Positions 15,237 through 17,608 of a stretch of 40,554 nucleotides of DNA are shown one piece after another (the stretch's first letter is position 1; each line of letters begins with the position of its first letter). The DNA comes from a virus. Location: UHGV virus genome UHGV-0200722; one strand, 5' to 3'. Under the pieces are notes generated by a model. That model was not told the DNA's origin. It did no database searches and saw only the letters and a program-made list of their open reading frames with translations. The position numbers were made by a program, and so were the translations under genes.

Positions 15237-16655
15237 ATGCCTATTCAGCAACTTCCGCTTATGAAAGGTGTCGGCAAAGACTTCCGAAACGCCGACTATA
15301 TCGACTATCTGCCAGTGAATATGCTGGCTACACCAAAAGAAATCCTTAACAGCAGCGGATATCTTCGCTCATTCCCGGGCATTGCCAAACGTTCTGATGT
15401 GAACGGCGTATCGCGCGGCGTCGAGTACAACATGGCGCAGAATGCTGTTTATCGCGTGTGTGGCGGCAAGTTGTATAAGGGCGAAAGCGAGGTCGGTGAT
15501 GTTGCCGGAAGTGGTCGCGTATCAATGGCGCATGGTCGAACATCTCAGGCGGTAGGCGTTAATGGTCAACTGGTCGAGTATCGCTATGATGGCACGGTTA
15601 AAACAGTCTCAAACTGGCCTACAGACAGCGGATTCACTCAGTATGAGTTAGGTTCAGTTCGCGACATTACGCGCTTACGTGGGCGTTATGCGTGGTCAAA
15701 AGACGGCACTGATTCATGGTTTATCACTGACCTTGAAGATGAATCGCACCCTGACCGATACAGCGCACAATATCGCGCAGAGTCGCAGCCGGACGGCATC
15801 ATCGGTATCGGCACATGGCGAGACTTCATCGTCTGCTTTGGTTCATCGACGATTGAATATTTCTCCCTGACTGGTGCAACCACCGTTGGTGCCGCTTTGT
15901 ATGTCGCCCAGCCATCGTTGATGGTGCAAAAAGGAATCGCCGGAACCTACTGCAAAACGCCGTTTGCTGATTCCTATGCGTTTATCAGCAATCCGGCAAC
16001 AGGTGCGCCGTCTGTGTATATCATCGGCTCCGGTCAGGTATCACCAATCGCCAGCGCGAGCATTGAGAAAATCCTCCGCTCCTACACTGCTGATGAACTG
16101 GCTGATGGCGTGATGGAATCGTTGCGGTTCGATGCTCATGAATTGCTGATTATCCATCTTCCGCGTCACGTCCTCGTGTACGACGCATCTTCAAGCGCCA
16201 ATGGTCCGCAATGGTGTGTGTTGAAAACTGGCTTGTATGATGATGTGTACCGCGCTATCGACTTCATTTACGAAGGCAATCAGATAACGTGCGGCGATAA
16301 GCTGGAGTCCGTGACCGGGAAATTGCAATTCGATATCAGCAGCCAGTATGACAAGCAGCAGGAACACCTGCTGTTTACTCCACTCTTCAAAGCAGATAAC
16401 GCCAGATGCTTTGATCTGGAGGTGGAATCATCGACGGGTGTTGCTCAGTACGCTGACCGCCTTTTTCTCTCTGCAACCACTGACGGCATAAATTACGGTC
16501 GTGAGCAGATGATTGAGCAGAATGAACCGTTCGTTTACGACAAACGCGTTTTGTGGAAGAAAGTAGGGCGCATCAGGAAAAATGTTGGCTTCAAATTGCG
16601 CGTTATCACGAAGTCACCTGTAACTCTGTCTGGCTGCCAGATAAGGATTGAGTAA
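15237..16655 (+). CDS. Tail accessory factor gp10 (P22 gene 10-like)
   Basis: 472-aa translation is nearly identical to P22 gp10 as recalled ([46 protein letters not shown]...). Confidence 0.95.
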
Positions 16656-17608
16656 TGGCGGATTCGAATCTCAATGTTCCGGTAATCATTCAGGCTACAC
16701 GGCTCGACACATCAGTCCTTCCACGCAATATCTTCTCGCAGTCGTATCTGCTTTACGTTATCGCACAGGGCACTGATGTTGGTAACGTGGCTAACAAAGC
16801 CAACGAGGCCGGACAGGGCGCTTATGATGCACAGGTCAGGAACGATGAGCAGGATGTCACCCTTGCAGACCATGAATCCAGAATTGAAGCTGCTGAAGCA
16901 ACTATCATCAATCATGAACATAGAATTGCAGCAGCGGAAAGCACTCTTGCAGATCATGAAACAAGGATTACGGCTGCTGAAACAGAGCTGGCTGATCACG
17001 AGACGCGAATTGCTGCCAATGAATCTGAGTTAGCAGTTCATGATGCGCGCATAACTCAGAATACAACCGATATCGACGCACTTGATACCAGGCTCACAGC
17101 GGCAGAGGGAAGTATTTCGACGCTACAAAGCACAGTTGGTGATCACTCAACAAGAATATCTGCGCTTGAGTATGCCACCACGCGCAAGAAATCAGAGGTT
17201 GTTTACTCAGGGGTATCGGTAACAATTCCGACAGCGCCTACCAACCTTGTTATCCTGCTGAAAACGCTCACGCCGTCATCCGGCACGTTGACACCATTCT
17301 TCGACACCGTTAACAACAAGATGGTTGTGTTCAACGAGAACAAAACCTTGTTCTTCAAGCTGTCGATCGTCGGGACGTGGCCCAGCGGAACCGCCAACAG
17401 GTCAATGCAGCTAACCTTTTCCGGCTCTGTTCCTGACACACTGGTAAGCAGTCGCAACTCGGCGACAACGACCGATAACATCCTGTTAGCTACGTTCTTC
17501 AGCGTGGATAAAGACGGCTTTCTTGCCACAAATGGCAGCACGTTAACCATTCAGTCGAATGGTGCGGCGTTTACTGCCACAACCATCAAGATAATCGCGG
17601 AGCAGTAA
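16655..17608 (+). CDS. Tail needle gp26-like with extended repeat coiled coil and C-terminal knob domain
   Basis: N-terminal ~65 aa match P22 gp26 ([35 protein letters not shown]); followed by six 14-aa repeats and a ~150-aa Ser/Thr-rich domain absent from P22 gp26. Confidence 0.85.
16862..17113 (+). repeat. Six tandem 42-bp (14-codon) repeats inside the tail-needle gene
   Basis: Protein repeat LADHE(S/T)RI.AAE.. six times; the DNA units are visibly similar (gcagaccatgaatccagaattgaagctgctgaa... / gcagatcatgaaacaaggattacggctgctgaa...). Confidence 0.8.

Follow-up and report, generated by a model that had tools for sequence, protein, structure and literature searches.

A long HS1-type tail needle in a P22-like E. 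coli phage genome and the in-register variation of its coiled-coil shaft

The virus genome UHGV-0200722 (40,554 nucleotides, the whole of which is referred to here as the window) contains an open reading frame in which a first-pass annotation recognized a tail needle with tandem repeats of 14 residues and a C-terminal knob. The locus raises the question of what this protein is, and of whether and how its repeat array changes in length. The gene almost certainly encodes the trimeric tail needle, in its long HS1 form, of a P22-like (Lederbergvirus-type) temperate E. coli phage, with an array that changes by rare in-register events. Protein identity, domain layout, conservation of ligand-pocket residues, periodicity, natural variants in copy number, and the breakpoints of these variants were computed here. 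The features of the locus are the following.

15237..16655, + strand: tail hub gene (P22 gp10 / Sf6 gp8 homologue), assigned by PHROG 578 'head closure Hc3', E=8e-230
16655..17608, + strand: tail needle gene (orthologue of P22 gene 26, Sf6 gene 9 and HS1 EcHS_A0316), 317 aa and stop codon
16655..16840, + strand: N-terminal domain, residues 1-62, putative plug of the hub channel (phmmer against the PDB; plug role from PMC9728967)
16841..17176, + strand: coiled-coil shaft, residues 63-174, 16 heptads (heptad register, AlphaFold2, phmmer)
16862..17113, + strand: six units of 14 residues (two heptads, 42 nt), residues 70-153 (register and autocorrelation)
17135..17176, + strand: seventh 14-residue unit, residues 161-174, after one odd heptad (ISTLQST)
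17177..17605, + strand: C-terminal knob, residues 175-317, TNF-like jelly-roll trimerisation domain with L-glutamate pocket (PF16532, 4K6B, 3RWN)
17608..18063, + strand: gp14-like (DUF2824) gene directly downstream of the needle, assigned by PHROG 651, E=2e-77

The needle gene, its neighbourhood and its relatives

The needle reading frame was annotated at exactly these coordinates, and the ORF list shows that it starts with ATG and that its stop codon lies within them. Its PHROG assignments are 1030 ('tail needle knob') and 1219 ('tail needle protein', E=2e-58). The gene lies between the tail hub and gp14-like genes and upstream of the ejection-protein genes (flanking ORFs matching PHROGs 637, 578, 651, 598, 917, and 770), and the gene order around the needle is common to HS1, Sf6, P22, and the window. 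The stop codon of the hub gene overlaps the start codon of the needle gene, the stop codon of which in turn overlaps the start codon of the gp14-like gene. The tail hub is a hexameric channel plugged by the needle, and the contact between the two has been described for Sf6 by cryo-EM (PMC9728967). Three overlapping ORFs (16712..16999 and 17203..17550 on the minus strand, and 16776..17033 on the plus strand in another frame) were dismissed as by-products of a repetitive and strongly conserved coding frame. All protein-family and structure matches fall in the annotated needle frame.

Leavitt et al. 2013 have described the needle of the E. coli prophage HS1 as a protein of 317 aa with 16 heptads, compared with 11 in Sf6 and P22, and have predicted that its helical core is ~210 Å long (PMC3741392). 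The window needle is equal to the HS1 needle (EcHS_A0316 / WP_000785558; knob 4K6B) in length, is 98% identical to it in protein, and shares with it the 16-heptad shaft, the order of the units, the knob, and the neighbourhood. The seven substitutions from the window to HS1 are I84L, D100E, A107D, V128N, T138A, I200S, and T213A. The two genes are 97.7% identical in DNA, and the surrounding HS1 phage genome is a different mosaic from the window. The isolated phages Gally, JEP4, and vB_EcoP-720R6 share the needle gene with 95-98% identity, and its annotation there reads 'tail needle knob' or 'DNA stabilization protein'. Roughly 900 E. coli genomes contain the gene. The needle of Shigella phage Sf6, gp9 (282 aa; 3RWN), which has been seen in situ by cryo-EM, has the same architecture of plug, coiled coil, and knob, with a knob that is ~98% identical. 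Its shaft, however, is diverged in sequence and has 11 heptads, with 28 + 7 residues fewer than that of the window needle, and overall DNA identity between the genes is 88% outside gaps. Salmonella phage P22 gp26 (233 aa; 2POH, 3C9I) is encoded at the same gene position, has the same role as plug and membrane-contacting needle, and is homologous from the plug into the beginning of the coiled coil, with ~54% identity across residues 1-159. It differs in having another C-terminal tip without the PF16532 knob, and the alignment fails after about residue 159.

The gp26-like character assigned to the N-terminus is evident in comparisons with known structures. The N-terminus matches the P22 gp26 structures 2POH, 3C9I, and 4ZKP in phmmer searches of the PDB at E~3e-42, and a 62-residue N-terminal fragment (8EAP) matches needle residues 3-64 with E=2e-27. 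Residues 1-68 are identical between the window needle and Sf6 gp9.

That the needle is a trimer, acts as a plug, is expelled, and influences the rate of ejection would follow by analogy with the literature on Sf6, HS1, and P22. For P22 and Sf6, a trimeric needle in the virion that closes the tail and leaves it upon infection is known (PMC3741392, PMC9728967). By this analogy, residues 1-62 would be a helical hairpin seated in the hexameric tail hub as a plug that holds the DNA in the head, residues 63-174 would assemble into a coiled coil of three strands and 16 heptads projecting from the centre of the tail, and residues 175-317 would fold as a TNF-like knob at its tip. During infection the needle would reach the outer membrane and be expelled, and the channel would thereby open. 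The knob would tune the rate of DNA delivery and not the host range.

Overall, the identification as a tail needle is correct, is contradicted by none of the results, and was already known. The architecture of the protein adds nothing new, as a description of the 16-heptad shaft and a structure of the knob at 1.1 Å are already available. Annotators can confidently call the gene an HS1-type tail needle with an Sf6-type knob, and the window can be recognized as a P22-like temperate E. coli phage genome. The modest addition lies in a natural in-register copy-number series of 7-20 heptads, with reciprocal duplication and deletion and with breakpoints at microhomologies.

The coiled-coil shaft and its variation in length

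Coiled-coil and structure prediction, which had been proposed as a check of the repeats, gave a regular a/d core and a single unbroken helix. AlphaFold2 placed this helix at residues 42-175, followed by the beta knob, and pLDDT averaged by block was 91-98 across residues 61-160. Heptad position a was L, I, or V in 15 of 15 shaft heptads, and position d read H A H A H A H N H N L A L H L. An engineered P22 gp26 fibre (4LIN) aligned with needle residues 1-183 in phmmer with E=1.7e-47. Each 14-residue unit is, as predicted from this register, a pair of trimeric coiled-coil heptads, LxDHExR with His at d and IxAAExx with Ala or Asn at d.

The six repeats of 14 residues that had been reported were found at exactly 16862..17113. 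Autocorrelation of the protein gave a residue identity of 0.39 at lag 14 against 0.09 in shuffles (z=11.2; reached by 0 of 2000 shuffles), and lags 28 and 42 were significant too. The count of six is generous because units 5 and 6 are weakly similar to the others: units 1-4 are 50-79% identical to one another in protein, compared with 21-50% for unit 5 and 21-43% for unit 6. Moreover, a seventh unit follows after the single odd heptad, which makes the heptad the true building block. The 42-bp DNA repeats that had been reported with the units are weak. Pairwise DNA identity between units is 36-74%, the longest exact match between units in register is 9 nt, and Tandem Repeats Finder, run on the whole window with a minimum score of 30, returned no array within the needle gene. 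A further repeat search gave only short families of 61-88% identity. One of these (D1) has a copy at 17127-17157, which is 147 nt (3.5 units) from the preceding copy at 16980-17010. The 14-residue repeat is visible mainly in the protein.

The expectation that such an array expands and contracts was confirmed among relatives. The 120 best homologue clusters contain shafts of 7, 9, 11, 12, 13, 14, 15, 16, 18, 19, and 20 heptads, so that public E. coli data cover a wider range than the reported 11-16. Close homologues are 254, 268, 282, 289, 296, 303, 310, 317, 331, 338, or 345 aa long, and they differ by whole shaft heptads, the step being 7 or 14 residues in nearly every case. A few lengths are off register (285, 298, 309, and 316 aa), and these forms may be defective. 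One homologue of 345 aa (P0001) has a perfect duplication of units 1-2, and another of 289 aa (P0043) has the reciprocal deletion. Two homologues of 303 aa (P0010 and P0021) lack one unit each, at two different places. The Sf6-type series behaves likewise, with lengths of 254, 268, 296, 310, and 338 aa. In the four variants checked in DNA, the indels were exactly 42 or 84 nt in genes otherwise 95-98% identical to that of the window, and the breakpoints fell within CTTGCAGA[C/T]CATGAA, AGAATTG, and GCGCG. The 303-aa form is annotated in a complete chromosome (NZ_CP023142). The extreme lengths (254 and 331-345 aa) were seen only in bacterial assemblies, as prophages, and the isolated phages listed have needles of 282, 288, and 317 aa. 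At least one length variant belongs to a prophage whose tailspike gene is truncated, so that the variants may not all be functional.

The array probably originated by in-register duplication. In natural populations it would continue to change by rare unequal recombination or slippage at microhomologies of 5-15 nt between units, each event gaining or losing whole heptad pairs and with them ~2 nm of shaft. We infer recombination as the mechanism behind the change in repeat number. The series of variants documents the evolution of the length of a coiled-coil fibre. The variants are also ready-made constructs with which to ask whether DNA delivery or virion stability depends on needle length, a link that has reportedly been examined for only a few needles.

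Shaft length could also be read as an adaptive, quantised trait: by gaining or losing two-heptad units in register, knob-bearing P22-like phages would adjust the reach of the needle to how thick the O-antigen or capsule layer is, or to how long a tailspike they carry. This reading is doubtful. The variation in shaft length and its mechanism are real, and any selection on it would be hypothetical. A tight coupling between the lengths of needle and tailspike found no support in the one comparison made: needles of 317 aa that are 98% identical stand beside a tailspike of 780 aa in the window and one of 527 aa in CUVET17-972, which argues against such coupling.

A different explanation of the shaft holds that the 14-residue period is a mere demand of the trimeric coiled coil, with large and small residues alternating at position d, and that new lengths are acquired by replacement of whole segments from other phages. 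The low DNA identity between units agrees with it, and P22-like genomes are highly mosaic. Leavitt et al. 2013 have also reported that HS1-type and Sf6-type shafts differ, with 67% identity, which is consistent with modular exchange (PMC3741392). However, identity between units 1 and 3 reaches 74% in DNA and 71% in protein. The perfect 84-nt tandem duplications and the exact deletions of one or two units, with clean breakpoints and on genes that are 95-98% identical, are intragenic and in register. As a full account this explanation is decidedly unlikely, although in-register duplication or deletion and the exchange of segments probably both operate.

The C-terminal knob

The first-pass annotation had placed after the repeats a Ser/Thr-rich domain of ~150 aa that is absent from P22 gp26, and both statements agree with the present results. 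The domain occupies residues 175-317, of which Ser and Thr make up 28.7%. It belongs to PF16532 (Phage_tail_NK), with E=1.2e-106 and 354 bits against a cut-off of 27 over profile positions 1-175 of 175. The C-terminal half of the window needle has no counterpart in P22 gp26, as P22-type alignments stop at query residue ~139-159. A P22-type tip without a knob (gp26 residues ~141-233) was ruled out, since the C-terminal halves do not correspond in the alignment.

Over residues 165-317 the protein shares ~98% identity with the crystallised knobs of HS1 (4K6B) and Sf6 (3RWN), which phmmer matched in the PDB with E=3e-89 and E=3e-88, respectively. These two structures were also the best fold matches of the predicted model (TM 0.87-0.88 on the target), and they were followed by BclA, PRD1 P5, and TNF-family proteins. 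Leavitt et al. have shown that the knob of the HS1 needle is TNF-like and binds L-glutamate, and have listed the residues in contact with the ligand (PMC3741392). All residues of the HS1 knob that contact L-glutamate and phosphate are likewise present in the window needle. The conserved residues are E181, K235, S283, D285, L290, and K312 (HS1 numbering) of a glutamate pocket that is putative here, being recognized from its residues, and the triad S266-R267-N268 at the tip. These nine residues are invariant across 15 homologues.

The fold of the knob suggests a further possibility, namely that it is a receptor-binding domain that sets which bacterium the phage infects. As the tip of the needle it is the first part to meet the cell, and it resembles the receptor-binding knobs of PRD1 P5 and of TNF-/C1q-like proteins, a likeness that has been drawn in the literature together with an adenovirus-like comparison (PMC3741392, PMC9728967). 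PRD1 P5, the adenovirus fibre knob, and Bacillus BclA all carry, as the needle does, a trimeric TNF-/C1q-like jelly-roll knob at the end of a fibre, and Foldseek matched these non-needle knobs with E-values of 1e-4 to 1e-3 at 7-15% sequence identity. They bind receptors or build surface layers, in contrast to the needle knob, which is not known to bind a receptor. Experiments also point away from host choice: P22 equipped with the knob of HS1 or Sf6 still infects Salmonella as usual, mutating the glutamate pocket has no evident effect on virion function, and the knob has no role in host specificity but alters the rate of DNA delivery (PMC3741392). In addition, the knob is 97-99% identical between E. 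coli and Shigella phages, whereas the tailspikes beside such needles differ greatly, as the two lengths given above illustrate. A receptor-binding role that decides the host is thus very unlikely.

Tempo of change in the array

Close relatives fall into many discrete length classes separated by 7 or 14 residues, and both a duplication and its reciprocal deletion were seen among them. Both features would be expected of a fast-switching contingency locus, comparable to phase variation, in which the length of the needle shifts at high frequency to suit different envelopes. Contingency loci depend on near-perfect DNA repeats. A search of 16655..17608 for near-identical head-to-tail DNA repeats (score 30) found none with Tandem Repeats Finder, and the units share only microhomology. 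Each length class is also spread over many contigs and diverged clusters (31 clusters of 303 aa and ~23 of 254 aa), which indicates stable inheritance after rare events. Because the units are diverged and share no more than 9 nt of exact homology in register, change is expected to be rare and to occur on an evolutionary time scale and not per infection. Fast switching is therefore highly improbable, and rare in-register duplication and deletion is the preferred account of the length classes.

Short-read assembly is notorious for errors at tandem repeats, and related genes with other numbers of units do exist, so that a collapsed or expanded array and a true gene of another length are conceivable. 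Misassembly of the array is nevertheless unlikely, because units with 36-74% DNA identity and exact in-register matches of no more than 9 nt are far too dissimilar for an assembler to confuse or collapse, and because the 954-nt gene recurs in complete genomes; with the reading frame and the heptad register also intact, an artefactual repeat number in the window has next to no likelihood. Its length of 954 nt recurs unchanged and without gaps in E. coli HS (complete genome), CUVET17-972, further complete E. coli genomes, and three isolated phages.

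The needle gene and its characterised counterparts

The gene order around the needle is that of P22 and Sf6, phages of Salmonella and Shigella, respectively. PHROGs identified a head-tail adaptor, a tail hub (gp10-like), a gp14-like protein, and three ejection proteins as its neighbours, and the nearest reading frames overlap it at both ends:

15237..16655, tail hub (gp10-like) ORF, 472 aa; its stop overlaps the needle start codon
16655..17608, + strand, tail needle ORF, 317 aa, ATG start (ORF listing)
17608..18063, gp14-like protein ORF, 151 aa; its start overlaps the needle stop codon

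Leavitt et al. have described the HS1-type needle, from a prophage of E. coli HS, as a protein of 317 residues with an N-terminal domain 98% identical and a knob 99% identical to those of Sf6, and a helical core predicted to be 210 Å long with 16 heptads, compared with 11 in Sf6 and P22 (Leavitt et al., 2013; PMC3741392). The HS1 knob, solved at 1.1 Å, is a TNF-like trimer carrying three L-glutamates and a phosphate at S266/N268 (PMC3741392). The window protein equals the HS1 needle in length and differs from it at seven residues. In phmmer searches against all PDB chains, residues 165-317 matched the knobs of HS1 (4K6B, E=3e-89) and Sf6 gene 9 (3RWN, E=3e-88), with three or four substitutions only. 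The first-pass annotation had proposed a gp26-like N-terminus, and this was borne out, as P22 gp26 structures matched residues 1-139 (E~3e-42); residues 1-183 also matched 4LIN, an engineered gp26 fibre. The Pfam family PF16532 (Sf6-type phage tail needle knob) was matched end to end (E=1e-106), and the PHROGs families were "tail needle knob" and "tail needle protein". All the residues listed by Leavitt et al. (E181, K235, S283, D285, L290, K312, and S266-R267-N268) are present in the window protein and invariant in 15 homologues. The best complete-genome match was a prophage of strain CUVET17-972 (98.3% DNA identity), and the 317-aa form also occurs in the isolated phages Gally, JEP4, and vB_EcoP-720R6. 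Judged by sequence, the needle belongs to an already characterised protein type and is orthologous to that of HS1 at 98% identity.

Cryo-EM of Sf6 has shown that the N-terminal hairpins of the trimer form a quasi-sixfold plug in the tail hub (PMC9728967). By orthology (98% identity), the plug, trimer, and release steps most likely hold for the window needle as well. Residues 1-62 would close the hub (gene at 15237..16655), the coiled coil of 16 heptads would stick out from the tail centre, and the knob would cap the tip; contact with the envelope would then release the needle and open the channel for ejection proteins and DNA. Infection of Salmonella is normal when P22 is fitted with the knob of HS1 or Sf6, and the knob therefore does not set host specificity; it does influence how fast DNA is delivered (PMC3741392).

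Many O157:H7 genomes contain an N-terminally truncated "tail needle knob" pseudogene (e.g., locus L008:1112-1648 in E. coli O157:H7 EDL933), which matches only query positions 507-952 at ~94% identity. It is the remnant of a decayed P22-like prophage, kept across the lineage.

Repeat units of the shaft

Six 14-residue units had been proposed at 16862..17113, and division of the protein into consecutive 14-residue segments starting at residue 70 recovered them at these positions with exactly the sequences listed. Over residues 61-181, identity at lag 14 was 0.39 vs. 0.09 in 2000 composition-preserving shuffles, none of which reached the observed value (z=11.2). Lags 28 and 42 were also strong (z=9.8 and 5.1), and odd multiples of 7 were much weaker (z=2.5, 3.8, and 3.2 at lags 7, 21, and 35). 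With the register set at residue 63, the shaft divides into 16 heptads and closes with ISALEYA (residues 168-174). From residue 70 onwards, each of the 15 heptads has L, I, or V at position a, and position d runs H A H A H A H N H N L A L H L, so that the 14-residue unit is a heptad pair, one with His and one with Ala or Asn at the core d position. Unit 6 is followed by a single heptad (ISTLQST) and a seventh 14-residue unit, which accounts for the 3.5-unit spacing in the DNA repeat search.

An AlphaFold2 model built from a 15-sequence alignment predicted one unbroken helix at residues 42-175 (mean pLDDT 91-98 over residues 61-160) and a beta-rich domain at residues 179-316. Foldseek placed 3RWN and 4K6B at the top (TM 0.87-0.88 on target), followed by BclA, PRD1 P5, and TNF-family proteins.

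Residue identity was 50-79% among units 1-4, 21-50% between unit 5 and the others, and 21-43% between unit 6 and the others. Pairwise DNA identity between units was only 36-74%, the longest exact in-register match was 9 nt, and Tandem Repeats Finder reported no array in the needle gene at scores down to 30. Of the 42-bp repeats in the first-pass annotation, the periodicity thus stands in the protein, but the DNA is diverged and not a crisp tandem repeat; the observation is confirmed as protein-level periodicity on diverged DNA. Misassembly of the array is unlikely, as units this diverged would not collapse; the same 954-nt gene, free of gaps, was found in complete genomes and isolated phages.

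Shaft length among homologues

A search of 5.8 billion proteins yielded 2461 relatives at E<=1e-20. Among the best 120 clusters, full-length sizes were 254, 268, 282, 289, 296, 303, 310, 317, 331, 338, and 345 aa, with shafts, taken between the fixed anchors NDEQD and LEYATTRKK, of 7, 9, 11, 12, 13, 14, 15, 16, 18, 19, and 20 heptads; length varies in the shaft and is constant in the N-terminus and knob. One cluster of 345 aa (P0001) has a perfect duplication of units 1-2, one of 289 aa (P0043) has exactly these units deleted, two of 303 aa (P0010 and P0021) lack one unit at different places, and one of 268 aa (P0062) lacks seven heptads. The Sf6-type shaft varies likewise, at 254 (-28), 268 (-14), 296 (+14), 310 (+28), and 338 (+56) aa. 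A few off-register sizes (285, 298, 309, and 316) also occur. The extreme sizes came only from bacterial assemblies, and isolated phages among the matches listed have 282, 288, or 317 aa.

The DNA of four variants was 95.0-97.7% identical to the window gene outside indels of exactly 84, 84, 42, and 42 nt. The breakpoints fall within short in-register matches (CTTGCAGA[C/T]CATGAA, AGAATTG, and GCGCG); within the array of the window itself, these same matches are the longest of their kind. Unequal exchange involving units 1 and 3 would give two reciprocal products, corresponding to the 345- and 289-aa forms. The suggestion that the repeats expand and contract is upheld by these in-register indels and by the range of 7-20 heptads in relatives, and the first-pass interpretation of the gene is supported. 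Because the units have diverged, gain and loss events must be rare; the locus is not a fast-switching one. Beyond what has been published, the analysis adds only a wider natural range, 7-20 heptads where 11-16 had been reported, and a probable in-register mechanism mediated by microhomology. Needle length could conceivably be under selection, e.g., matched to envelope thickness.

A 303-aa needle is annotated in the complete chromosome NZ_CP023142, within a prophage whose tailspike gene is truncated. In E. coli CFSAN061770 (locus L016:19531-19986), the prophage with the 303-aa needle combines a truncated tailspike gene with an IS1 fragment close by, indicating that some length variants reside in defective prophages. 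Some Sf6-type needles from E. coli and Shigella assemblies (P0074, P0080, and P0081) have small in-frame duplications in the N-terminus, not the shaft: KAN occurs one or two extra times, or 16 residues are duplicated, in the region that forms the hub-plugging hairpin.

The remainder of the phage genome

The window is the mosaic genome of a P22-like temperate phage, with nin-region, lysis, packaging, virion module, tailspike, integrase, and lambdoid early region genes. Features outside the needle region are:

40506..40554 joined to 1..~1908, IS21-family element, roughly 1957 bp, spanning both window ends
about 40506-40535 and 1846-1908, its terminal inverted repeats
40..1062, istA, 340 aa, PHROG transposase
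1059..1841, istB, 260 aa, DnaC-like/IstB
25312..27654, tailspike, 780 aa, PHROG matches only in the first ~240 residues
27924..28274, UmuD-like ORF, 116 aa, PHROG 3469
38438..38532, six iteron copies of TTGTCCAACGG in two clusters (38438-38469 and 38505-38532)

Most tailspike matches cover the first 110-190 residues, the head-binding region, and the receptor-binding body had no PHROG match among the best 25 families listed. The same needle is paired with this 780-aa tailspike and, in CUVET17-972, with one of 527 aa (L003:26734-28317); the needles are 98% identical, whereas the tailspikes are quite different, and this single comparison gave no tight coupling between needle length and tailspike size. 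The IS21-family element is flanked by the helicase gene and the nin region, and similarity to other phages starts at 1993. As the element runs across both ends, the window represents a circular or permuted genome that was opened within the IS. The iterons fall within the O-like replication initiator gene (38052..38942), with an AT-rich stretch after them, in the layout of a lambdoid origin of replication with iterons. The UmuD-like ORF occupies the interval from the tailspike to the integrase (28924..30102), which is a frequent site of lysogenic-conversion or accessory genes in P22-like phages. Inside the gp7-like ejection protein gene (18066..18758), a 21-nt tandem duplication of AAGCGCAAAGTATGCCGCAG (18155..18196; 2 copies, 90% match) codes for the repeated motif AKYAAEAQKYAA.
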